A stretch of 32,000 nt of DNA from Prochlorococcus sp. MIT 0801. GTDB lineage: Bacteria > Cyanobacteriota > Cyanobacteriia > PCC-6307 > Cyanobiaceae. Below, piece by piece: positions 3,118 to 14,177 of the stretch; position 1 is the stretch's first letter, and each line of letters opens with the position of its first letter. Under the pieces are notes generated by a model. It was not told where the DNA came from and made no database searches. It saw only the letters and a program-made list of their open reading frames with translations. The translations under genes were made by a program, and so were the position numbers. The stretch spans positions 420,001 through 452,000 of the forward strand of contig NZ_CP007754.1 of the NCBI RefSeq assembly GCF_000757865.1, written 5' to 3'.

Positions 3118-3314
3118 GTTCCTAGATTTCTTTGTTTATTAATAGATACGAGGAATGCCAAAATAGCAACTCTTATTTTATAAGTTACTTTTATTAGGAC
3201 TCATTTATTTATAAATAGTTTCTATTCCTATTGGCTTTAAGGAGTTAACCGAACATTGAAAACTCACAGTTGCTAATCAGTTGATAGATCATTAATGATA
3301 ACTAATAGGTGGTT

Positions 3315-3488
3315 ATGAAAAAATTCATTCCTTACTTAATTTTTTCGGCAACTACTCTACATACAGTTCTTGGCATTTCACCAGTAATGGCATTGGGTTG
3401 TAGCTCACATTCAGACAAAGCTGAGGTTGTCTGTGAGGAAGGAGATACCGATTGTGAGGAGAAAATTTCTGCTTCAAAAATCAACTAA
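3315..3488 (+). CDS. small secreted/lipoprotein-like acidic Cys-containing protein (57 aa)
   Basis: My own translation gives MKKFIPYLIFSATTLHTVLGISPVMALGCSSHSDKAEVVCEEGDTDCEEKISASKIN. It has a hydrophobic leader followed by a lipobox-like ALGC. AGGTGG lies just upstream of the ATG. Confidence 0.45.
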   Translation: MKKFIPYLIFSATTLHTVLGISPVMALGCSSHSDKAEVVCEEGDTDCEEKISASKIN

Positions 3489-3660: not shown

Positions 3661-3840
3661 CTACATCAACTGCTCCTCTAAAAGCTTTTGTTCTCTTTCT
3701 TGCTTCGGTGGCAATGGTATCTTGATATTGCATAGATCTAATTCGAAAACTCCTCCTGCACCAAAGTGATTGGTGTCTGATTGTGAAGGAGAAGGGAAGA
3801 GAAGTGAAGTGGTTAGAGCGACTATCAAAAAGTTATTCAT
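3661..3840 (-). CDS. small signal-peptide protein (59 aa) immediately downstream of the protease-adhesin gene
   Basis: My own translation gives MNNFLIVALTTSLLFPSPSQSDTNHFGAGGVFELDLCNIKIPLPPKQEREQKLLEEQLM. The ATG at 3840 is 3 nt after the stop (3844-3846) of ORF 3844..7083, so co-transcription is likely. The N-terminus looks like a Sec leader. Confidence 0.35.
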   Translation of the reverse strand: MNNFLIVALTTSLLFPSPSQSDTNHFGAGGVFELDLCNIKIPLPPKQEREQKLLEEQLM

Positions 3841-3843
3841 TAG

Positions 3844-6800
3844 TTAACCAAACCCAGTCATCTCAGTAAATAATCCTTTATTTTCTGCTGATTCTGCAAA
3901 GCCTAAAAGAACTTCATATCTTGTTTCTGCTCCGCTATTTAATTGACCTACCCAATAATTGTGACCATTGCTATCGGCTGCTCTATTAAGTATGTCTCCA
4001 TACAAATTATCTATATATTCTTGATTAGTTAAATGATTTGATAACTCAACATAATTTAGTTTGTAGTTAATATTTGGAGCATGAGAAATATTTGAGCTGT
4101 TGATATTTGTTGTATCTGGTTGTCTTAGATTGTCTAAAGAATAATCTGATAAATTATCCAAAGTTAGACCAGTAATAACATCTATTGAATTGCTTGGATT
4201 GCTGACAGGACTTAATTGAAGATTACTTGAGGTACTACTGAATTTTGTAATACTATTTTGGATCTCTGAAAGTGTCGCAACTGTTGAATAGCCGATTTCA
4301 TTAATAAATGTTTTTGCCTCGGTAAGGTTATTTCCTGTAATCCAAGGACTAGTAGATGCTGGTTGATAGGCAAGTATATCGGAAGTACTTTTTCTTATTT
4401 CATATGTATATTGAATAGCAGCATTTGTTTTATGAGTTAACGTTTTTTTATCGACTTCGCTCCCATCATTATTTAGGGCAGCCCAAGTTAAATCGTTTGC
4501 AATTGAAGCAAGTTCAAGATTTCCTGAATCGATTTGACTAGACCAATAAGTTAATCCTGCGGTATCTCCATTTCTATTAAATAGGTTTAAATAGATTTGA
4601 TTGACTTGAGCTGTCGTACTTAGATTTCCATTAACCGAATTAAATTCAGGTTGCAAATACATATTTGCAGCAAAAGCTTTTTTAGTTACTTTTTGGCCCA
4701 GCCAATAATCTAATCCATTTGGATCACAAGGTCTCCCAAAATAACCAATATATAATTGTTGTAATTCAGTTGATGTCGCAGATGTAGAAGAGGTATTACT
4801 TTCATCTTCTACATCAGTAATTACTACTCGAAACCAATTTGAATTATTTACATTCTCATTAGTGTCAGTAGAGTTAATACTCATTATGTATAAATTATTA
4901 TCACCACCTGCTTGCGGGTTTTCATAGTCAAGATTTCCATTAATAGACAGAGATCCTGTGATTGGGTCTATTGAAAAATGTTGATAATCATTATTATCAA
5001 ATAGTTGTGATATAGACCAAGTGACTTCTTCATTGGCAATGAATCTGTAAATTTCTTGGTTAGTACCTTCTTGAATATCTATGGATGTCGATGAAGCAAA
5101 AGTGCCAGAGGTAGTGGAATAAAGTACATCATTATTTACTCCATAGATGATTGGTTTTTCCGTATCCCCTTCTTCTAAAGCATTAACAGACAGAGTGAAT
5201 GCTTCGGCATAGGTTTCACCACCACTATCAGTTGTTTGTAAGCGAATCTTGTAGGAGGATTTTGTTTCGTAATCCGGAGAGGCTTTAATTTTTAAGGATG
5301 ATCCATCAATCGTAAAGGAGCTGTTATCTGTATCATCAGTACCGGTGACTAAAGAGTAGGTATGCGTATCGGATGTATCATCATCTGTCGTAGAGAGAGT
5401 TGCGACCGTAGAAGCAGCAGCAATATTTTCATTAAAACTGCTTGAAGATAAGGTTAATGCTGTAGGTGTTTCATTGAGATCATTCACCGAGAGTGTGAAA
5501 GCTTTAGCGTAGGTTTCACCACCACTATCAGTGACTTGTAAGCGGATATTGTAGGAAGACTTTGTCTCGTAATCAGGAGAAGAATTTATCTTTAAATATG
5601 TTATTGCTACTCCTTTATAGATGGTGAATAAACTGTTATCGGTGTCACCATTACCACTGATTAAAGAGTAGGTTCGTAGATCGGAAGTATCAGCATCTGT
5701 ACTACCTATTGCCGAGACGATTGTAGAGGCAGCAATATTTTCATTGAAACTTGTTGAGATTAATCGAAGGTCTGTAGGCGCTTCATTAACATCGGCAATA
5801 GTAGTCTCAATCCATTGATTAGAAGAATTCCCAGCGAGGTCTGTCGCTTTTACATATATCGAATAAATGCCATTGGAATTGCTATCAAGATGATTTTCAT
5901 AATCAGGAGCATTATTAAATGTTAATAGACCAGTAGTGGAATTAATTGAAAAGAATGTGGGGTCATTTCCTCCATTAATTGACCAAGTAACAGCTTCGTT
6001 GGCAGTAAAGGTATGAACAGTTGTCGTATTCTCATTGATTGTTTTCTTACTATTTTCCGCACCAGCACTTCCTGAAGGACCCGTAATTAATGGCTTTATC
6101 TCATCTGTAGACGTATCATTAATGGATATTGATTTTGTTTTTTCGCCAATTGATAATGTGAAGTTTTCTGTGCCTTCAGTTTTTTGATCTGTACTAATAC
6201 CAATACTGAAGGTAGCCTCACCATTTTCATCAATGGTTGTTATTCCGCTAAGTGCACCACTTGAGAAATCAGAGGAGGATACTCCACTTAATGTATATGT
6301 ATATTGTGTATTCTCTTCCTTTTTATGAGTTTTAAAAGTGAATGAAATACTGCTACCTTCATTTACACTGTTAGCAGATGTTATCGTCGCAAAACTCTTG
6401 TCATATAGATAATTATTTAATTCTCTTTCTTCTAATAACCAATCAGAGTGTGCATTGAGTGCACATGCCCAACTATTAGTACTGACTACTCCAATTACTT
6501 GATATTCAAGGCTTGCACCTGAATACACATAGACAGGACCACCTGAATCACCGCTGTTAACTTCAATATCACTAGTATTCCAAGAAAAGAAATTATCTAT
6601 TGAATTTTTATAAACTATACCTTCGTCATACATCAACCTGTAATTGTATTGACCTGGATGTCCAAGTTTTGAAGCAGTTCCACTATCAAAATCAAATTTC
6701 AAACCCATCCAACCATAAGTGGAACCAATATCTGTCCCGAGAGAAATTAAGCCAATATCTTTCTCTAGTTCTAATAGTGTGCCGGGGACACCATCACCTG

Positions 6801-7083
6801 CAGTTACTAACTCATCACCATTTTCGTCCCAATCAAATGTGTTATACCATTCGGCATTATAATAAGTATTTGAACTGCTGTTAGGGTCGTATGAAGGATA
6901 TATCCTACATGCATCCGGCAAACCCCCTAGCTTCTTATCATAGATAACATGAGCAGCAGTCAGGATATCATTTTCTCCAATAATAATACCGCTACCTGAA
7001 AAAGTTTCGCTTCCATAATCAGCCTCTATATATACAACCCGCCTGAACGGTGAAATATCGTCATTTACTTCGTAAGTAGCCAT
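3844..7083 (-). CDS. leaderless multidomain exoprotein: S1 trypsin-like serine protease head, Calx-beta-like segment, cadherin-like repeats, several DUF4214-type repeats
   Basis: 1079 aa. The catalytic motifs are ILTAAHV (His), KDIGLISL (Asp candidate) and GDSGGPVYV (Ser). The Calx-like stretch reads SVNEGSSISFTF...EGTENFTLSI. There are ~100-aa repeats with FNENIAA...DxDxxD...YSL..G.(D)TDN..F.I....L......DYE.K.SY.I.LQ.TDSGGETY. DUF4214-like LYxxxFxRxxDxxGLxYW motifs occur several times. The protein ends LLGFAESAENKGLFTEMTGFG. Confidence 0.9.
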   Translation of the reverse strand: MATYEVNDDISPFRRVVYIEADYGSETFSGSGIIIGENDILTAAHVIYDKKLGGLPDACRIYPSYDPNSSSNTYYNAEWYNTFDWDENGDELVTAGDGVPGTLLELEKDIGLISLGTDIGSTYGWMGLKFDFDSGTASKLGHPGQYNYRLMYDEGIVYKNSIDNFFSWNTSDIEVNSGDSGGPVYVYSGASLEYQVIGVVSTNSWACALNAHSDWLLEERELNNYLYDKSFATITSANSVNEGSSISFTFKTHKKEENTQYTYTLSGVSSSDFSSGALSGITTIDENGEATFSIGISTDQKTEGTENFTLSIGEKTKSISINDTSTDEIKPLITGPSGSAGAENSKKTINENTTTVHTFTANEAVTWSINGGNDPTFFSINSTTGLLTFNNAPDYENHLDSNSNGIYSIYVKATDLAGNSSNQWIETTIADVNEAPTDLRLISTSFNENIAASTIVSAIGSTDADTSDLRTYSLISGNGDTDNSLFTIYKGVAITYLKINSSPDYETKSSYNIRLQVTDSGGETYAKAFTLSVNDLNETPTALTLSSSSFNENIAAASTVATLSTTDDDTSDTHTYSLVTGTDDTDNSSFTIDGSSLKIKASPDYETKSSYKIRLQTTDSGGETYAEAFTLSVNALEEGDTEKPIIYGVNNDVLYSTTSGTFASSTSIDIQEGTNQEIYRFIANEEVTWSISQLFDNNDYQHFSIDPITGSLSINGNLDYENPQAGGDNNLYIMSINSTDTNENVNNSNWFRVVITDVEDESNTSSTSATSTELQQLYIGYFGRPCDPNGLDYWLGQKVTKKAFAANMYLQPEFNSVNGNLSTTAQVNQIYLNLFNRNGDTAGLTYWSSQIDSGNLELASIANDLTWAALNNDGSEVDKKTLTHKTNAAIQYTYEIRKSTSDILAYQPASTSPWITGNNLTEAKTFINEIGYSTVATLSEIQNSITKFSSTSSNLQLSPVSNPSNSIDVITGLTLDNLSDYSLDNLRQPDTTNINSSNISHAPNINYKLNYVELSNHLTNQEYIDNLYGDILNRAADSNGHNYWVGQLNSGAETRYEVLLGFAESAENKGLFTEMTGFG

Positions 7084-7384
7084 ATCTTGAAACTTCTTCT
7101 TTAATTAAATATCATTGATTTTTTTATGATATATTATTCAAGATTAATCCAGTAAATCGATATTAATTCTGATTGTACCATGTAACTTGAGATCTATTGG
7201 TATCAATAAGATTAAAGGGCGTTAAACTTAGCTGCTCACGTATAATCTGCACATAGTTGGATTGATACAAAGAGAGATATTTTATTCCTCTCAGCATAGC
7301 TAAAGAGTAGTGGTGTCTGGGGTATATGATAGGTGATTCGATCAATAATGATCGTGAAGAAATTTGTGGTGGATACTTAGGTGT

Positions 7385-10300
7385 TTAACCAAAACCTGTC
7401 ATTTCAGTAAAGAGAGTCTTGTTTTCAGCTGATTCAGCAAAACCCAAAAGCAATTCATGTCGAGTTTCAGTACCGTTATTTAAATTGCCAAGCCAATAGT
7501 TATAGCCCTCTTGGTCATAGTCTCTACCTAAGACATTGGTGTAAAGAGTTTCTACATACTTTGCGTTAGTCACATTATCTCCATACCGCTGTTTAAATTC
7601 AGCAGAGACAAGAAATGATTGTGCAACAGCACGTTCATCATTCTCTCCAGAAGAATATTTGCCAATCCAATATTTCAAACCATCCGCATCAGGAAGGCGT
7701 TTAAAGGAAGCATTATATAAACGGAACATACGCCCTGAATCTGTATCTAAACCAGTGACTTGATCAAAGGTTCCTTTGATATCTGCGATGGCACTCACAT
7801 CACGGAACGAACTGGTGCTTGCCTCTCCGCTAAATTTTAACGATGGATAACCAGTGATGTCGTCATAACCAGAATCAGTTTTGATTTCATATTTTCCATT
7901 ACCTTTGTTATAGAACTTGTAATCACTAAATTCACCGGTATAAGTTTTCACTACGTCTACTTTGGATTCTTCTACGGTTTGATCTGAGAACTGAATATAT
8001 TCAATATTTTTAAGAGTATCGGTTCCATCAGTTGTTCCAGTCGTCCGTTGATCTGAGATTTGTAGCGTATCTGTGCCACGTGTAAAGCTGTAATTAGAAA
8101 ACTTGCCAGAATAGATCAACGTGTCAGTCTCTGTTCCGCCGTCTAAATAGTCATTTTTTGAGGTGCTTGTTATTGTATCTTTTCCTGTTGTTCCAGAAAG
8201 TTCATTTAAATCGTTGACAGTAAGCGTTTTAGTGAATGTTGCTTGACTTGGAACTGAGTACTCTCCATTGGGCAGAACAGTGGGTAATTTATATTGAGTG
8301 TCGGTTAAAAGTGAGTACAGCTTTGTATCTGTGGATTGTACTTTTGCTGATGTATTTGGTGTCCATTCATTTTTGATAGAGTCAAGTCTTCCAGTAAAAT
8401 CTTGAGCTCCTAAGATAGAGGTCAAACCCCAGTAGAAATACTCCGTTGCTTGAGTAGCATAATCACTTGTTTCGTCATAATAGGTATACCAGGCGCCAGC
8501 GGGATAAGAGCTAGGTATTGTTTGAAAATTTCCACCTCTTGCAATGTCCATGGCTTCAGTTAATAACGATGTTGTATTAACAGAAAACGCCGTTGGGTAT
8601 ACTTTGGCATATCCATAGTCGGTAATTAAATGCAGGACTTCTTCTAAAGAAGCATCAAATTTACCTGTGGCGGCACCGTTAGGGATTGTTTCTTCTCCAA
8701 AGAGGTTTTGTGCATTTAACCCTGTACTTTCTAAAACACTTAAATCTGCCGAGTCATTTTCTGCTTCGTCTTTGAACATCACTAAGGTCGCCTTGCTATT
8801 AATCATTGATGTGATAACCGCACTATCATCAGCTACTCCGTCTTCGTCATTATCAAGATATTCAGCCATGATTTTCGCAGCATGCTGTATATCACTATCA
8901 AGAGTTGTTGATGTTGCGTAAATTTTTATCCCAAAGACCTCTGCCTCTTTTGAAAAAGTCTGAGATATACCACTTGGAGCATCACTCGAAATACTTCCAA
9001 TTGAAAATGCTTTAGCTTGCTTCTGACCACTATCAGTAGTTTGTAGCCTGATGCTGTAGGAAGACTTTGTCTCGTAGTCAGGGGCTGCTTTAATTTTTAG
9101 AGATGTACCATCAATGGTAAATGAATCGTTATCAGTATCACCAGTGCCAGTTACAAAGGAGTATGTATGCGTATCTGAAGAATCAGCATCTGTTGTGGAG
9201 AGAGTTGCGACTGTAGAAGTAGCTGCAACATTTTCATTAAAACTAGTTGAGGATAATGTTATGGCTGTGGGCACTTCATTAAGATCGTTGACTGAGAGGG
9301 TGAAAGCTTTAGCGTAGGTTTCACCACCGCTATCAGTAGTTTGTAGCCTGATGCTGTAGGAAGACTTTGTCTCGTAGTCAGGGGCTGCTTTAATTTTTAG
9401 AGATGTACCATCAATGGTAAATGAATCGTTATCAGTATCACCAGTGCCAGTTACAAAGGAGTATGTATGCGTATCTGAAGAATCAGCATCTGTTGTGGTG
9501 AGAGTTGCGACTGTAGAAGTAGCTGCAACATTTTCATTAAAACTACTTGAAGATAAGACTAGTGCTGTAGGTGCGTTGACATCAAGAACCGAAATAGTAA
9601 CTGTTTGCTTAGCTATAGTTCCAGAACTATTACTTGCTTTGACGACTGGGACATAATCATTATTTGTATCACTATCAGTAGGAGTTTCATAATCGGGTGC
9701 AGTTTTAAACGTTAAAGCACCTGAACTTGAATCAATACTAAATTTAGACGCATCATTTAAATCACTTATACCTAATAAACTTTCATTCGTTGGAATATCA
9801 GAGAAAGTAAATGTTCCATCGATTTTCTCTAGATAGTAATGATCTAAATACTCAGTTCCACTACTGTTTATATATTTGAAATCAAAACGTAACGAGTCTG
9901 TCCCATTCCATTCATCAATCCAATATTGCCTAGATCTTGTAGTGGTATCTCCTCTATAGTCATTGCCATTCTGCAGGCTACTTCCATCTATTTGAACGAA
10001 CTTATCTTGAGCAGAATCATATGAAAAAGTGGACAGACTTTTAAACCCTTTTGTTCCATCATCGTTTCCACCAACATCAAGGAGAGAATTTTCTGCTTGT
10101 GTTTTAAATGTTAAGGCAATATCTCCAGATCCACTATCTTTGACCTCACCGCTTTTAAAAAAGTTTTGAGTATCAGTTATTGAGGCAGAAGAAAGTGACC
10201 AGGTAGCACTTTCAGTTGCTAAAAAAGTATGAATAGTTGTTGAATTCTCATTGATGGACTTAGTGCTTGTCAAATCAACAGCACTTCCTGATGGACCTGA

Positions 10301-10444
10301 AATTAAAAAGGAGGATGACACAATATCAATGGTATTTATCAATAAAGTAATATAACTCTTTTTGATACTTTGTAAGTGTTTTGCTTTAGAGCTAATTTTT
10401 ATACTATTTGTAGTTTTGAGTCTAACTTGACCGACCCAATCCAC
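7385..10444 (-). CDS. large exoprotein: cadherin-like repeats, unknown ~260-aa central domain, Ca-binding RTX-flanking-like segment, shared C-terminal DUF4214 module; start codon uncertain
   Basis: 1019-aa ORF. Its track start is a GTG that lies inside repeat R1-B, and there is no in-frame ATG for hundreds of codons. Alternative starts are TTG at 10342 and GTG at 10321. It contains two near-identical 100-aa cadherin-like repeats. The tail DIKGTFDQVTGLDTDSGRMFRLYNASFKRLPDADGLKYW...LLGFAESAENKTLFTEMTGFG is shared with its neighbours. Confidence 0.8.
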   Translation of the reverse strand: MDWVGQVRLKTTNSIKISSKAKHLQSIKKSYITLLINTIDIVSSSFLISGPSGSAVDLTSTKSINENSTTIHTFLATESATWSLSSASITDTQNFFKSGEVKDSGSGDIALTFKTQAENSLLDVGGNDDGTKGFKSLSTFSYDSAQDKFVQIDGSSLQNGNDYRGDTTTRSRQYWIDEWNGTDSLRFDFKYINSSGTEYLDHYYLEKIDGTFTFSDIPTNESLLGISDLNDASKFSIDSSSGALTFKTAPDYETPTDSDTNNDYVPVVKASNSSGTIAKQTVTISVLDVNAPTALVLSSSSFNENVAATSTVATLTTTDADSSDTHTYSFVTGTGDTDNDSFTIDGTSLKIKAAPDYETKSSYSIRLQTTDSGGETYAKAFTLSVNDLNEVPTAITLSSTSFNENVAATSTVATLSTTDADSSDTHTYSFVTGTGDTDNDSFTIDGTSLKIKAAPDYETKSSYSIRLQTTDSGQKQAKAFSIGSISSDAPSGISQTFSKEAEVFGIKIYATSTTLDSDIQHAAKIMAEYLDNDEDGVADDSAVITSMINSKATLVMFKDEAENDSADLSVLESTGLNAQNLFGEETIPNGAATGKFDASLEEVLHLITDYGYAKVYPTAFSVNTTSLLTEAMDIARGGNFQTIPSSYPAGAWYTYYDETSDYATQATEYFYWGLTSILGAQDFTGRLDSIKNEWTPNTSAKVQSTDTKLYSLLTDTQYKLPTVLPNGEYSVPSQATFTKTLTVNDLNELSGTTGKDTITSTSKNDYLDGGTETDTLIYSGKFSNYSFTRGTDTLQISDQRTTGTTDGTDTLKNIEYIQFSDQTVEESKVDVVKTYTGEFSDYKFYNKGNGKYEIKTDSGYDDITGYPSLKFSGEASTSSFRDVSAIADIKGTFDQVTGLDTDSGRMFRLYNASFKRLPDADGLKYWIGKYSSGENDERAVAQSFLVSAEFKQRYGDNVTNAKYVETLYTNVLGRDYDQEGYNYWLGNLNNGTETRHELLLGFAESAENKTLFTEMTGFG
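9027..9626. repeat. 2 x 300-bp tandem duplication inside ORF 7385..10444
   Basis: 9031-9250 versus 9331-9550 has a period of exactly 300 nt and only about 3 mismatches by eye (9199, 9246, 9251). Each unit encodes one cadherin-like repeat. Similarity decays after about 9555. Confidence 0.95.
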
Positions 10445-10506
10445 CTCAAACTTTCCACTGCTGGCTTTATCTTTAGACCTTTACCAAGGATTCAGTGGAC
10501 TCATCT
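10417..10506. repeat. R1 repeat, copy B (~90 nt)
   Basis: Aligns with copies A and C. It carries a 3-nt insertion (GGGTCGGTCAAG versus GGATCAAG/GGATCAGG on the minus strand) and a few other indels. It sits between the stop of ORF 10540..11952 and the 5' end of ORF 7385..10444. Confidence 0.85.
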
Positions 10507-10539
10507 GCTCTGTAATGGGAGTAATAAGTTTTTCATTGT

Positions 10540-11952
10540 TTAGGCAAATCCAGTCATCTCAGTAAAGAGAGCTTTATTTTCTGCTGATTCGGAGAAGCCA
10601 AGGAGAACTTCATATCTTGTTTCTGCTCCGCTATTTAATTGACCTAACCAATAGTTCAATCCACCGGTATCAGCATCTCTGCTTAGGACATTTCTATACA
10701 GAGTATTGACATAGATTGAATCCGAGACGTTGTCTCCATAACGCTGCTTAAATTCAGCAGAAGCTAAAAAAGATGAAGCTACGGCTCGTTCATCATCTTT
10801 CCCAGAACTGAAATTACTAATCCAATATCGTAGTCCATCGGGGTCAGGTAGACGTTTAAAGGAGGCATTGTATAGGCGGAACATTTTTCCAGAGTCTGTA
10901 TTCAGCCCAGTGACTTGATCAAAAGTTGCTTTTATATCGTTTGTAAGATTTAAATTTTTATCTTCAAACTTTAAAAGGTTAATGCCAGTTAGAGGATCAA
11001 TAGTTGTTCCATTTTTACTCTTTATCCCATATTGAGAATTCCCTAAATTGTAAAATTTAAAATCATAACTTTTATCAGAAAAAGTCATAATTTTTGATTT
11101 TCCCCATATAACTTCAAGTGATTTTATATCGACACTTTGGAACCATATGTCTTTATAATTAGTGTCATCGACATAGCTACCATTCCAACCCATCAATGAG
11201 TATTCATAGGGAAACAGTGGTTCACTTCTAAGATAGGAAAAATTTTCAGGATAATATGGGTTAAGCACATCATCATCAATTAAATCAAATGGGTGTTCCA
11301 ATCCAAGTAGATGTCCTAATTCATGAACGAAAGTTGCTTTCTGCATCTTTTTGCTGAAGTCAGTGTGATTTAAGAGATCTAAATTGTTTTCAGTGGTATA
11401 CAGTCCAGATTGATAACTTACAGAGAGTAAATTGCCACTTTTTCCTCTCTCTGTATCTGCTGATAAGAAATTATTATCGGCCAATGGTGAGATTACAATG
11501 GTGTAATCAGCTTCATCTCTTTTATTTACTAGCTTTAAGTCTATGTCGATATATTCATTTATTTTTTCAAGAGAGTCAATTACATATGACTTTTGCCATT
11601 CTTCTGGTATTAATGAATAGTATTTCTTGTTTTCTGATTCTCCTAGGTTGATATCTATTAATTCATCTCCACCAGTTGATAGATATACTTTGATTTCCCT
11701 ATTGGTTCCTGCGTATTCTTTCCTTATAGCAATTTCATCTCGTCCATCTGCAAATCCCATTATTAAATATTTAGGATCTATTGGCTTAAATGAATCTGTT
11801 TCCTGGAAATTAGTGGGAGCTGATAAATATTCTTTAGATTGAAGTCCGTTTGTTTCTTCAGCATTAACTGATAATTGGGAACTCCTTGTAAGTTCAATAA
11901 CTGTTGCAATATCAGTTTCAAACCCTTTCGATTGTAAGCAAATAAAGCACAT
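10540..11952 (-). CDS. leaderless zinc metalloprotease (metzincin, M10-like) with shared C-terminal DUF4214 module
   Basis: 470 aa. HELGHLLGLEHP fits HExxHxxGxxHP and YSLMGW is a Met-turn candidate. The C-terminal ~176 aa (SYDFKFYNLG...LLGFSESAENKALFTEMTGFA) is shared, and 122 of those residues are identical to ORF 12309..14177. Confidence 0.88.
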   Translation of the reverse strand: MCFICLQSKGFETDIATVIELTRSSQLSVNAEETNGLQSKEYLSAPTNFQETDSFKPIDPKYLIMGFADGRDEIAIRKEYAGTNREIKVYLSTGGDELIDINLGESENKKYYSLIPEEWQKSYVIDSLEKINEYIDIDLKLVNKRDEADYTIVISPLADNNFLSADTERGKSGNLLSVSYQSGLYTTENNLDLLNHTDFSKKMQKATFVHELGHLLGLEHPFDLIDDDVLNPYYPENFSYLRSEPLFPYEYSLMGWNGSYVDDTNYKDIWFQSVDIKSLEVIWGKSKIMTFSDKSYDFKFYNLGNSQYGIKSKNGTTIDPLTGINLLKFEDKNLNLTNDIKATFDQVTGLNTDSGKMFRLYNASFKRLPDPDGLRYWISNFSSGKDDERAVASSFLASAEFKQRYGDNVSDSIYVNTLYRNVLSRDADTGGLNYWLGQLNSGAETRYEVLLGFSESAENKALFTEMTGFA

Positions 11953-12001
11953 ACTTTGATATAGGCTGAAAATTAATAGCTTTTATGAAAATTTATAATG
12001 G

Positions 12002-12205
12002 CTATTTGATCTGGTCTACTGATTTTATCTTTCCGTTCCACTGGTTTGAGTTCTCATTGCTATTCACTCCCTCAATAGCTTTGTACTGGTACTTCTTAGT
12101 GTTAGGGACAAGCTCTCGATAGCAGAAAACGTTTGGATCTCTCTTGAATGACAAGACAACGCCCTTACCTTCTAGCACTTTTGTTTTTACGGCGATATTC
12201 GGCAT
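12002..12205 (-). CDS. R2 small protein (67 aa), hypothetical
   Basis: ORF track sequence MPNIAVKTKVLEGKGVVLSFKRDPNVFCYRELVPNTKKYQYKAIEG.... A decayed paralog exists at 16305-16615, which argues that this was a real gene. Function unknown. Confidence 0.45.
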   Translation of the reverse strand: MPNIAVKTKVLEGKGVVLSFKRDPNVFCYRELVPNTKKYQYKAIEGVNSNENSNQWNGKIKSVDQIK

Positions 12206-12308
12206 GAAAAACGCTTGCCTTACTGCAAATAGATTAGCAAGAGTTTGACAAAAGCTTGACCTGAGTGGTTAGAAACAAGTAATAGACTAGCTCTAAGCTT
12301 TTCATTGG
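12040..12308. repeat. R2 repeat, copy 2 (5' part of the small gene plus ~100-nt upstream region)
   Basis: Aligns by eye with 16470-16719. Long shared blocks include TTAGCAAGAGTTTGACAAAAG, GAAAACGTTTGGATCTCT, AATGACAAGACA and GTAATAGA-TAGCTCTAA-CTTTTC. Confidence 0.85.
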
Positions 12309-14177
12309 TTATGCATATCCTGTCATTTCAGTAAAGAGTCCTTTGTTTTCTGCTGATTCAGAGAAGCCAAGGAGAACTTCATATCTTGTTTCTGCTCCGC
12401 TATTTAATTGACCTAACCAATAGTTCAATCCACCGGTATCAGCATCTCTGCTTAGGACATTTCTATACAGAGTATTGACATAGATTGAATCCGAGACATT
12501 GTCTCCATAACGCTGCTTAAATTCAGCAGAAGCTAAAAAAGATGAAGCTACGGCTCGTTCATCATCTTTCCCAGAACTGAAATTACTAATCCAATATCGT
12601 AGTCCATCGGGGTCAGGTAGACGTTTAAAGGAGGCATTGTATAGGCGGAACATTTTTCCAGAGTCTGTATTCAGCCCAGTGACTTGATCAAAAGTTGCTT
12701 TGATGTCATTAGCTAGATGCATATTTTTATCATCAAATTTTAAGATCGAGGCACCTGTTAATTCATCGATTCCACTTGTTGTCTCGACTCCATATTTATC
12801 ACTTCCTAAATCATAGAATTTATAACTATCACTTTTGCCTGAATATATTTTTTCTGATTTAAATCCTAATGAAGTAATACCTTTAACTTCCTTGCTTGTT
12901 ACTAAGGCATTTTTATCTGCGAAGGTCAGCTTTTCAATATTAGATAAGGTATCAGTCCCATCATTTGTAGATGATCGATTATCTACAACAGTTACTTTTT
13001 TATTAGAAATTGTGAATGTGTAATCTGAGAATTTCCCGGAGTAGGTTGCTATATCATAGTTACTGCCACCATCAATTATATCGTCACCACTATTACCTTG
13101 AATATTGTTTTTGTACTTATTACCTGTAATTTGATCAGCACCGGAACCACCTTTAGCATTCTCAATGATGGAATTGAATGCAATACCTAAATGGTTTTTT
13201 GCAGACCAATTATTATCAAAACTTAAATCGCAAAATTCACCCTGTGAAAGATTAATTATTTGGCTCTTTGTAAAATTACCAAAATCTAACGTATCAACTC
13301 CACCCGCATCCCAAATAGTTGCAAAGAGTGGTTCGTTTGGTGAGTAGCTATAGATTGTATCTCCTACATTATATTGGTTATTTGCTCCATATAGATACTG
13401 TAAAGGTGCTATATCGTATATTCCAGGATCCATCGAAATAATATTGTTATCGTCTATAAATGTGTTTTCACCGTCGGGGCCGAATAAAGTATGTGGTCTT
13501 TTGTTTTTAGATTCAGGAAATTTAATTGTTGGATGATCTCCAGGGTGCTCGGTTCCTAAAGCATGAAAAATTTCGTGGTATAAAATTTTTAGATCCCCAT
13601 CACTTATTCCATTGTCAGGCACTGTGCCAGAAGCAAAGTTACCAATATTTTCATATTGCTTATTAAAAAAAATGTCACCTCCTCGCGGCTGATCTCCAGG
13701 GATTGAAGCTGTTGCACCAATGCCTTCTCTATAAACTCCAGATTCGTCAGTAATTGTTCTTATAGCTAATCTGATTGTTCCAACTTTTGAAATTGTCTCA
13801 CCATTCTCCTCAACGTCTTCTTCATCAACTTCGACAAAAGTTATATTTACAAAATCACTTATGCGTTCAAATGCTTTTCTGATATCACTTGCTTGTTTTT
13901 CTGTGAAAGCGGTAGCTTTGACTAACCCAAGAAACTCTTCTTCAGCATAACTATATCTTGCTGTCTTCCCATTTAATCCTGGCAAGCTATAGGTAATGAC
14001 TGTTGAGGAATTTACAGAATGATCCTTTGTATAAACTGGATCCGAGACCCATCTAATAGGTTGTCCTTGTGAGTTGTTAAAAAGAGAATCTATATAGTCA
14101 ATGCCAGAATTGTTTACGAATTCAATTGATTGATTGGCAGTTTTGTGGGTTTGTTGTTTTGGTGTCATATATTTCAA
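12309..14177 (-). CDS. leaderless serralysin-like metalloprotease (M10B-like) with RTX Ca-binding repeats and shared C-terminal DUF4214 module
   Basis: 622 aa. HEIFHALGTEHPGDH fits HExxHxxGxxHP. The RTX nonapeptides are GGSGADQIT...GNSGDDIIDGG. The RTX-flanking pattern is YSGKFSDYTF...DGTDTLSNIEKLTFADK. The tail is DIKATFDQVTGLNTDSGKMFRLY...LLGFSESAENKGLFTEMTGYA. Confidence 0.9.
   Translation of the reverse strand: MKYMTPKQQTHKTANQSIEFVNNSGIDYIDSLFNNSQGQPIRWVSDPVYTKDHSVNSSTVITYSLPGLNGKTARYSYAEEEFLGLVKATAFTEKQASDIRKAFERISDFVNITFVEVDEEDVEENGETISKVGTIRLAIRTITDESGVYREGIGATASIPGDQPRGGDIFFNKQYENIGNFASGTVPDNGISDGDLKILYHEIFHALGTEHPGDHPTIKFPESKNKRPHTLFGPDGENTFIDDNNIISMDPGIYDIAPLQYLYGANNQYNVGDTIYSYSPNEPLFATIWDAGGVDTLDFGNFTKSQIINLSQGEFCDLSFDNNWSAKNHLGIAFNSIIENAKGGSGADQITGNKYKNNIQGNSGDDIIDGGSNYDIATYSGKFSDYTFTISNKKVTVVDNRSSTNDGTDTLSNIEKLTFADKNALVTSKEVKGITSLGFKSEKIYSGKSDSYKFYDLGSDKYGVETTSGIDELTGASILKFDDKNMHLANDIKATFDQVTGLNTDSGKMFRLYNASFKRLPDPDGLRYWISNFSSGKDDERAVASSFLASAEFKQRYGDNVSDSIYVNTLYRNVLSRDADTGGLNYWLGQLNSGAETRYEVLLGFSESAENKGLFTEMTGYA

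Follow-up and report, generated by a model that had tools for sequence, protein, structure and literature searches.

In Pseudomonas putida KT2440, the RTX-DUF4214 protein Psh (PP_1794) is exported only when the AprD/HlyD/OMF type I secretion system is restored, and the exported protein confers a cell-bound resistance to phage that does not cross-protect neighbouring cells (bioRxiv 10.64898/2026.09.02.748959). The heads listed with Psh for other DUF4214 proteins are serralysin/peptidase, cadherin, S-layer-type, and peroxidase domains (bioRxiv 10.64898/2026.09.02.748959). Segmented filamentous bacteria and 'Candidatus Dechloromonas occultata' also have several predicted surface proteins that carry DUF4214, and the authors propose that the domain acts there as a surface anchor; DUF4214 proteins have further been found in Serratia culture supernatant. 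Here, we describe a cluster of four adjacent genes in Prochlorococcus sp. MIT 0801, which we take to belong to the low-light LLI clade, whose products carry different heads on a common C-terminal tail containing DUF4214. The cluster lies in a stretch of 32,000 nucleotides (assembly GCF_000757865.1, contig NZ_CP007754.1, positions 420,001 to 452,000), which is referred to as the window. Our analysis suggests that the four proteins are probably type I secretion substrates that are kept at the cell surface through this tail.

By description, Psh has the same layout as those Prochlorococcus relatives that consist of little more than the tail: it is leaderless, and its RTX repeats lie N-terminal to a C-terminal helical DUF4214 domain. 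It differs in having no enzyme head and in that the genes for its type I system and for O-antigen lie next to its own; the window cluster has neither beside it. Serralysin-family proteases are classic type I substrates whose C-terminal signal is not cleaved. The fourth window protein, ORF4, resembles the serralysins (M10B; AprA, PrtA, and ZapA) and Caulobacter SapA in its HEXXHXXGXXHP motif, its Peptidase_M10_C/RTX beta-roll, and its lack of a leader; it differs in having an extra module of approximately 180 residues, made of a beta part and DUF4214, after the beta-roll, and it scores far below the family cutoffs. In the sister genus, marine Synechococcus, leaderless exoproteins of serralysin, cadherin, RCC1, and RTX type, which include haemolysin-like and giant proteins (for example, EAR19380.1, EAR17767.1, and SwmA/SwmB), have been detected outside the cell, and RTX, serralysin, cadherin, and RCC1-type proteins were detected experimentally in Synechococcus exoproteomes (PMC4949707). 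Segmented filamentous bacteria differ in that their envelope has a single membrane and the proteins are Sec dependent, and anchoring is the authors' proposal there too. Cellulosome dockerins and S-layer SLH anchors use one terminal module on many heads for surface placement, as we propose for the tail, a likeness in how they work and not one of homology.

Four proteins with one C-terminal tail

The four minus-strand open reading frames (ORFs) reported in an earlier note on this DNA, made from the letters alone, are present and are exact matches of MIT 0801 proteins in RefSeq, where each is named "DUF4214 domain-containing protein" and nothing more. They are ORF1 (AIQ96576; 3844..7083; 1079 residues), ORF2 (AIQ96577; 7385..10444; 1019 residues when read from the GTG at 10444), ORF3 (AIQ96578; 10540..11952; 470 residues), and ORF4 (AIQ96579; 12309..14177 in its longest form, from a TTG; 619 residues from the ATG at 14168). 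RefSeq starts ORF2 at a GTG 41 codons downstream (approximately position 10321), giving 978 residues, and starts ORF4 at the ATG at 14168. Alignment and Pfam bore out the claim that all four share one C-terminal sequence preceded by DUF4214 repeats. The proteins end in ...LLGF[AS]ESAENKxLFTEMTG[FY][GA]-stop, and DUF4214 (PF13946; gathering score, 23.2 bits) scores 117 bits in ORF1, 121.7 in ORF2, 127.5 in ORF3, and 124.4 in ORF4.

A longer module, put at approximately 175 residues in the earlier note and measured here at approximately 183, is common to ORF2, ORF3, and ORF4, and a tblastn search of the window with the tail returned exactly four copies. The ORF4 tail (12312..12860, minus strand; 183 residues) shares 86% amino acid identity with that of ORF3 (10543..11085, minus strand) and 64% with that of ORF2 (7388..7942, minus strand), which is built of a beta domain, a DIKGTFDQVTGL linker, and a DUF4214 pair. 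ORF1 carries only a short form, a terminal DUF4214 unit at 3847..4038 on the minus strand (residues 1016-1079; best Pfam stretch, 1016-1072), with 41% identity over tail residues 21-182 by tblastn.

Structure prediction, proposed in the earlier note as a check, yielded a high-confidence model. AlphaFold2, run on the ORF4 tail with an alignment of 124 sequences, gave a predicted local distance difference test score (pLDDT) of 96.2 and a predicted template modelling score of 0.89. In this model, a beta domain of six short strands (residues 1-48) is followed by a nine-helix domain (residues 49-180) formed by the DUF4214 pair, and the final helix is built from the last conserved residues. Beta "cap" units with the pattern YSGxFSxYxF...DTLxNIExxxFxD precede the module in ORF2 and ORF4. 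As modelled, the module is composed of one or two of these small cap units, often placed after RTX repeats, and then a compact helical domain of two DUF4214 units. In a Foldseek search, the helical part matched phycobilisome linker domains of PF00427 (3osj, 2ky4, and 3nph) with a probability of 1.0 and an E value of approximately 1e-2; the template modelling scores (approximately 0.37-0.49; approximately 0.47 on the target) and the 13-16% identity make this a consistent but weak match. PF00427 itself had no Pfam match in the four proteins. The predicted likeness between the DUF4214 pair and the linker is one of fold only, and the cellular context of the linker is a different one. No solved structure matched the tail by sequence (the best hit of a PDB profile search had an E value of 0.018), and no DUF4214 structure has been solved.

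The heads differ from one protein to the next. Profile searches supported the protease, cadherin, RTX, and DUF4214 assignments of the earlier note, apart from the points on ORF1 and ORF3 described here. In ORF1, a leaderless S1 protease head (residues ~28-210) is followed by a beta-rich region, four cadherin repeats, an internal DUF4214 pair (residues ~794-950), a low-complexity linker, and the terminal DUF4214 unit ending ...LLGFAESAENKGLFTEMTGFG. Both Trypsin_2 (32.4 bits; cutoff, 27.6) and Trypsin (29.3 bits; cutoff, 20.6) score above their cutoffs, and the S1 motifs TAAH and GDSGG lie at residues 42 and 178, so that membership in S1 stands; the catalytic Asp was placed by eye (DIGLISL). 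Cadherin reaches 80.9 bits over four stretches and DUF4214 matches in two, and a library entry of the length of ORF1 (1079 residues) has its best profile stretch at 794-950, the internal pair. The Calx-like repeats that had been claimed for ORF1 found no backing, as Calx-beta (PF03160) had no Pfam match there at an E value of ≤0.01; Calx-beta is present in three other members of the family.

ORF2 consists of cadherin repeats (66.8 bits), an unannotated domain of approximately 280 residues, a weak RTX signal (17 bits, below the cutoff), two cap units, and the full tail. The unannotated domain (8165..9082, minus strand; residues 455-760), listed in the earlier note as unknown, has no Pfam model and belongs to a widespread family, with 1567 homologues at approximately 50% identity in Planctomycetota, SAR324, Opitutae, and others, where it often forms stand-alone proteins. 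Its AlphaFold2 model (pLDDT, 90.3) gave weak Foldseek matches to anthrax lethal factor, PPEP-2, and collagenase H (E values, 0.06-0.4). Residues E147, E148, and H151 are invariant and form an EExxH in place of the HExxH of zincins, and the predicted fold may be zincin-like.

ORF3 is a leaderless M10-like protein whose zinc motif (HELGHLLGLEHP, residues 210-221) stands in a head fused directly to the full tail. Peptidase_M10 scores 18.9 bits against a cutoff of 24 and the motif HELGHLLGLEH(P) is present; therefore, the earlier assignment of ORF3 as a metzincin holds by motif only and not by profile score. The N-terminal sequence of ORF3 (MCFICxQxKGFETDI) was found again in other family members. 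In ORF4, a serralysin-like metzincin (HEIFHALGTEHP) is followed by the Peptidase_M10_C/RTX beta-roll, one cap unit, and the full tail. Peptidase_M10_C scores 51.9 bits (cutoff, 20.7) and HemolysinCabind 24.8 bits (cutoff, 23), and HEIFHALGTEH is accompanied by two GGxGxD-type repeats (GGSGAD and GNSGDD), in agreement with the serralysin-like RTX protein described before. ORF4 combines the HEXXHXXGXXHP zinc site with a C-terminal RTX beta-roll, as serralysins (M10B) do, and scores 120.7 bits against a cutoff of 500 for NCBIfam Zn_serralysin and 133.3 against 1200 for SapA. Its sequence is serralysin-like and by score lies outside the NCBIfam Zn_serralysin family. The 90%-identity cluster of ORF4 has 37 members, including complete genes for 619 residues from ocean metagenomes. 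GGxGxD repeats are clear in ORF4, below the threshold in ORF2, and absent from ORF1 and ORF3. Judged from sequence, the cluster holds three or four proteases.

The tail family in Prochlorococcus and beyond

When one genome per species was scanned, 199 stretches encoding the tail came up, and 80 of them were kept; these come from Prochlorococcus single-cell genomes, the complete genomes MIT 0916 and MIT 1012, and one contig of a metagenome-assembled genome labelled Pelagibacter. Approximately 100 tail-bearing ORFs of 250-2584 residues are present in 26 genomes, with one to seven or more per genome, and a search with the tail alone returned 426 relatives, all from marine metagenomes. The spacing from ES.ENK to the stop codon is exactly 10 residues in 94 of 98 distinct tails, and variation is almost absent at positions -9 (L), -8 (F), -5 (M), -4 (T), and -3 (G). 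Of the 1.84 billion representative proteins in a library, 34,856 match the tail profile, and 103 of the 105 best matches that reach the end of the profile stop within 2 residues of the protein C terminus. Some giant proteins carry 3 to 10 tandem internal copies of DUF4214, which is typical of a binding module and not of a mere signal.

Single-linkage clustering of the heads was uninformative, since shared RTX and cadherin pieces linked most of the heads to one another, and a Pfam census of 99 family members was used instead. RTX repeats occur in 43 of the 99 heads. The other domains are cadherin, Calx-beta, PPC, Big_5, FG-GAP, RCC1, cyclophilin, and CopC, alongside proteases of families M10, M8 (leishmanolysin), S1 (trypsin), and S8 (subtilase) and a GH114 head whose match is near the cutoff. 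Many members have little beyond RTX repeats, cap units, and the tail. The tail is absent from typical cytoplasmic enzymes among the 99, whose heads are of extracellular type; a tail borne mainly by cytoplasmic proteins, which the earlier note had named as a result that would refute its proposal, was not what we found.

The most conserved member of the family is a leaderless protein of approximately 600 residues (MTAPLIQGASG...) in which a cyclophilin-type prolyl isomerase is joined to a cadherin-like piece, to RTX repeats, and to the tail (L006:8714-10552; orthologues in loci L003, L005, L007-L011, L013, L014, L016, L019, and L068). In ten of its genomes, its gene lies approximately 5 kb from one for a 611-residue ABC exporter, which is treated below. 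The Pelagibacter-labelled contig (NZIO01000063; locus L032, Candidatus Pelagibacter) carries two tail genes and the small downstream ORF described below and has a G+C content of 35%, like that of the Prochlorococcus loci; it is probably mis-binned Prochlorococcus DNA.

Beyond the cyanobacteria, the whole module is found with 33-46% identity at the C terminus of leaderless proteins, the genes for which lie on plasmids of Sulfitobacter, Pseudomonas, Rhizobium, Roseomonas, and others. One of these proteins, from Sulfitobacter faviae, is a leaderless metzincin built like ORF3, and its gene is surrounded by rfbBCD and genes for glycosyltransferases. A Pseudomonas putida plasmid has a mannose/glycosyltransferase cluster in which three DUF4214 genes stand in tandem next to the genes for two trypsin-like proteases; the DUF4214 proteins of this plasmid share 36% identity with the window tail over 91% of its length. 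The ends of the tails differ: those of Prochlorococcus stop 10 residues past ES.ENK, whereas the proteobacterial proteins run on to ...DDGIWYV or ...NGGLWLV. No link to cyanophages was seen, the one weak match of a tblastn search against phage genomes being a protease of a siphovirus from enhanced biological phosphorus removal, and nothing specific describing the tail family earlier was found in the literature. On balance, these data favour a large, lineage-expanded family of leaderless, acidic, and largely Cys-free exoproteins of low-light LLI-type Prochlorococcus, each with a variable head on the common tail.

Proposed export and retention at the cell surface

In cyanobacteria, the export machinery identified to date comprises only type I, IV, and V secretion systems and type IV pili, and the hallmarks of cyanobacterial type I substrates are the lack of a leader, an isoelectric point (pI) below 5, few or no Cys residues, and Ca-binding repeats (PMC11424642). 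The tail proteins fit these published criteria in their lack of a leader, acidic pI, and low Cys content, and Ca-binding repeats are present in part of the family. ORF1 to ORF4 begin 0-12 codons after an upstream in-frame stop codon. None of the 88 complete family members has a hydrophobic N terminus as judged by a hydropathy heuristic (12-residue window; threshold, ≥2.0), the maximum over the first 40 residues being ≤1.42, which agrees with the earlier note, where no Sec, Tat, or lipobox leader had been seen, and with the leaderless state of type I substrates. The pI is 4.05-5.05 in all 101 family members considered, 67 of which are free of Cys, so that the family is acidic and low in Cys as such substrates are; the four window proteins have a pI of 4.17-4.69 and 0-3 Cys residues. 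The C terminus, strongly conserved and fixed in its position in 94 of the 98 tails, fits a type I signal.

We propose that the unfolded protein would be exported C terminus first, in one step, by a type I system made of an ABC transporter, a periplasmic adaptor, and an outer-membrane channel, which would recognize the invariant free C terminus. Outside the cell, Ca2+ would fold the RTX and cap part, and the DUF4214 domain would retain the protein on the surface, most likely via O-antigen or another surface glycan. The outcome would be an exchangeable set of surface-displayed hydrolases and adhesins. We infer this export route, the surface retention, and the ligand from the observations on the family and from Psh; the O-antigen cluster setting of the proteobacterial relatives points to a glycan ligand.

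Several observations weigh against this proposal. Pfam searches of all larger ORFs in the window found no gene for an ABC exporter, an adaptor, or TolC, as the earlier note had also reported. The fetched loci were screened for Walker-A and LSGGQ motifs and, by phmmer, with Escherichia coli HlyB, HlyD, and TolC; in all, the 900 ORFs gave three kinds of match, a 611-residue ABC exporter, amino acid importer ATPases, and a 357-residue HlyD-family adaptor, and no TolC-like ORF was detected in approximately 1 Mb of these loci. Both the ABC exporter and the adaptor are core genes across Prochlorococcus clades with no specific link to the family. RTX repeats have no clear match in three of the four window proteins (ORF1, ORF2, and ORF3), and the model places the extreme C terminus inside the folded helical bundle and not as a free peptide. 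Finally, the binding of Psh to O-antigen was proposed by its authors from localization and modelling, not from a binding assay (bioRxiv 10.64898/2026.09.02.748959).

The two exporter candidates were rejected as dedicated partners of the family. The 611-residue protein is best described as MsbA/HepA-like, scores below every NCBIfam cutoff, and has no adjacent adaptor gene, and the adaptor is encoded by a core Prochlorococcus gene between ychF and polA. Nothing specific on type I secretion or TolC in Prochlorococcus was found in the literature.

If the tail served type I secretion and folding only, as a signal and C-terminal folding nucleus, the enzymes would be released free into seawater. The invariant stop position, the strong conservation of the last 12 residues, the RTX repeats just upstream in many members, and the occurrence of Serratia DUF4214 proteins in culture supernatant would all be expected. 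However, a nine-helix domain of 130 residues that folds with high confidence far exceeds the known needs of a type I signal, DUF4214 is present elsewhere in multiple internal tandem copies, and the proteobacterial relatives sit in O-antigen clusters. Psh protects no neighbouring cells, and free enzyme release would presumably be costly for a dilute planktonic cell. We regard secretion without retention as unlikely. Retention through protein and not glycan is a further option, in which the tail would be a docking module like a dockerin or an S-layer anchor, bringing the heads onto one scaffold or assembling the proteins with each other into a variable coat that masks phage or grazer receptors. 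The modelled helical domain resembles in fold the phycobilisome linkers, which are protein-protein connectors; many members consist of RTX repeats, cap units, and tail, the layout of the phage-shielding Psh; and the family is hypervariable between genomes and occupies island-like positions, such as that beside the photolyase gene in the window and in locus L001. Yet no conserved partner gene was found except a small ORF with a signal peptide at some loci, and the link to O-antigen clusters favours a glycan ligand, and docking is also unlikely.

Prochlorococcus releases extracellular vesicles, and an anchor on the outer-membrane surface would carry cargo along with shed vesicles passively. A tail that targets proteins into or onto vesicles is nevertheless very improbable, as we know of no vesicle-sorting signal that resembles the tail module and our analyses give no specific pointer to vesicles. 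The earlier note had proposed the tail as a handle for export, for surface anchoring, or for anchoring to vesicles; export and surface anchoring came through the in silico tests that could have refuted them, and Psh offers a precedent for export and the anchor proposed in segmented filamentous bacteria one for anchoring, whereas nothing points to vesicles. The note also stated that no function is established for DUF4214, a view that the 2026 Psh preprint is beginning to supersede (bioRxiv 10.64898/2026.09.02.748959). It is scarcely credible that the proteins stay inside the cell, with the tail acting as an intracellular interaction domain or as a repeat spread by recombination without a common function. 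Phycobilisome linker domains are cytoplasmic and the tails are homogenized by gene conversion, as such a reading would have it, but RTX, cadherin, Calx-beta, and PPC domains belong outside the cell, as do proteases of secreted type, and the pI is uniformly acidic and Cys residues are few. Moreover, ORFs of 250-2584 residues are intact, with complete copies in ocean metagenomes, and proteases of the S1 and metzincin types, if active and with no inhibitor present, would be expected to harm the cytoplasm.

The locus, its flanks, and a probable exchange of heads

The heads of ORF3 and ORF4 are less than 45% identical, and their tails contain a nearly identical block of DNA (10600..10935 in ORF3 and 12369-12704 in ORF4, minus strand) with 1 mismatch in approximately 336 nucleotides. 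This block indicates, by its sequence, recent gene conversion or cassette recombination between neighbouring paralogues. The similarity of tail genes extends beyond the stop codon. From the stop codon of ORF2, a non-coding 3' element of approximately 270 nucleotides (7108..7387, minus strand) fills the spacer between ORF2 and ORF1. It opens TAACCACTTAGATATCCACCACAAATTTCTTCAC... and is found again behind tail genes at no fewer than 22 further loci (for example, at L023:10562-10841, L042:12946-13225, and L064:16800-17079). Its first ~80 nucleotides share more than 90% identity across 22 loci, and of the 28 copies of its core, 24 are located within 40 nucleotides downstream of a tail-gene stop codon. 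The element ends with a TATAAT-like box just before the next gene. When it was tested as a coding sequence, a structured RNA, and a known RNA, no conserved ORF, consensus structure, or Rfam match was found.

A second kind of flank is a small ORF. At 3661..3840 on the minus strand, an ORF of 59 residues starts 3 nucleotides after the stop codon of ORF1 and encodes a signal-peptide-like N terminus followed by DTNHFGAGGVFELDL...KQEREQKLLEEQL. It belongs to a family of proteins of approximately 60 residues whose genes start 3-7 nucleotides after tail-gene stop codons and whose signal-peptide-like start is followed by DTNHFGAGGVFELDLGDSEIPLTPKQEREQKLLEEQLKK. The small ORF is intact in six other loci (L012:10556-10744, L030:1073-1264, L032:7169-7396, L044:4900-5115, L048:6844-7035, and L060:1167-1334), and degraded stubs of 11 and 23 residues follow ORF3 and ORF4. 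Its product may be an accessory partner, e.g., an inhibitor, an anchor, or a chaperone.

The window has a G+C content of approximately 35% and the MIT 0801 genome is 1.93 Mb; Pfam identified core genes around the cluster (photolyase, rpsD, murE, mqo, and lepA). The window has no tRNA gene, and no terminator-like sites were found between the four genes on the minus strand. In locus L001 of another Prochlorococcus cell (single-amplified genome GCA_003212855.1, contig QCOQ01000006), this photolyase gene has on its flanks three tail genes unlike those of the window, together with a gene for a restriction-modification methylase. Because L001 holds different tail genes there, the photolyase-adjacent site appears to be a variable island. 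The homogenized tails, the conserved flanks, and the varying contents of such sites suggest that the tail and its 3' flank act as a recombination handle for head swaps, in which they would supply portable homology so that heads are exchanged and tails homogenized. As separate observations, a gene resembling those of phage integrases is located close to tail genes (L046:18989-20311), and an ORF of 59 residues with a lipoprotein-like start (MVMKKFIPYLIFSATTLHTVLGISPVMALGCSS...) is present on the plus strand at 3309-3488, in an ORF-poor stretch between the photolyase gene and ORF1.

These findings do not amount to a new principle, as earlier work has already described RTX/DUF4214 proteins with a range of heads, their export by type I systems, and a proposed association with the surface; what is added here is the expansion of the family, its shuffling, and its protease content in Prochlorococcus. 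The usual picture of Prochlorococcus is that of a streamlined, free-living photoautotroph that secretes very few enzymes. If the four proteins are type I substrates retained at the surface, each genome of one low-light lineage would encode up to seven or more hydrolases and adhesins that lack a leader and bear the tail, in a set that varies from cell to cell and that bears on mixotrophy on proteins and peptides, on attachment to particles or other cells, and on phage and grazer recognition. DUF4214 would gain a concrete, testable role, to which the model adds a high-confidence fold, and Prochlorococcus would be linked to the Psh result in Pseudomonas. More tentatively, it is possible that in LLI Prochlorococcus the tail is a universal "plug" that places exchangeable, strain-specific proteases, glycosidases, isomerases, and adhesins on a surface glycan, and that the tail, the 270-nucleotide 3' flank, and the small signal-peptide ORF form a head-shuffling cassette. 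Were this so, a supposedly minimalist photoautotroph would carry out cell-bound extracellular proteolysis, which would help it to obtain organic nitrogen at the lower limit of the sunlit zone, and would have the means for adhesion to particles or cells and a hypervariable protein coat that alters its recognition by phages and grazers.

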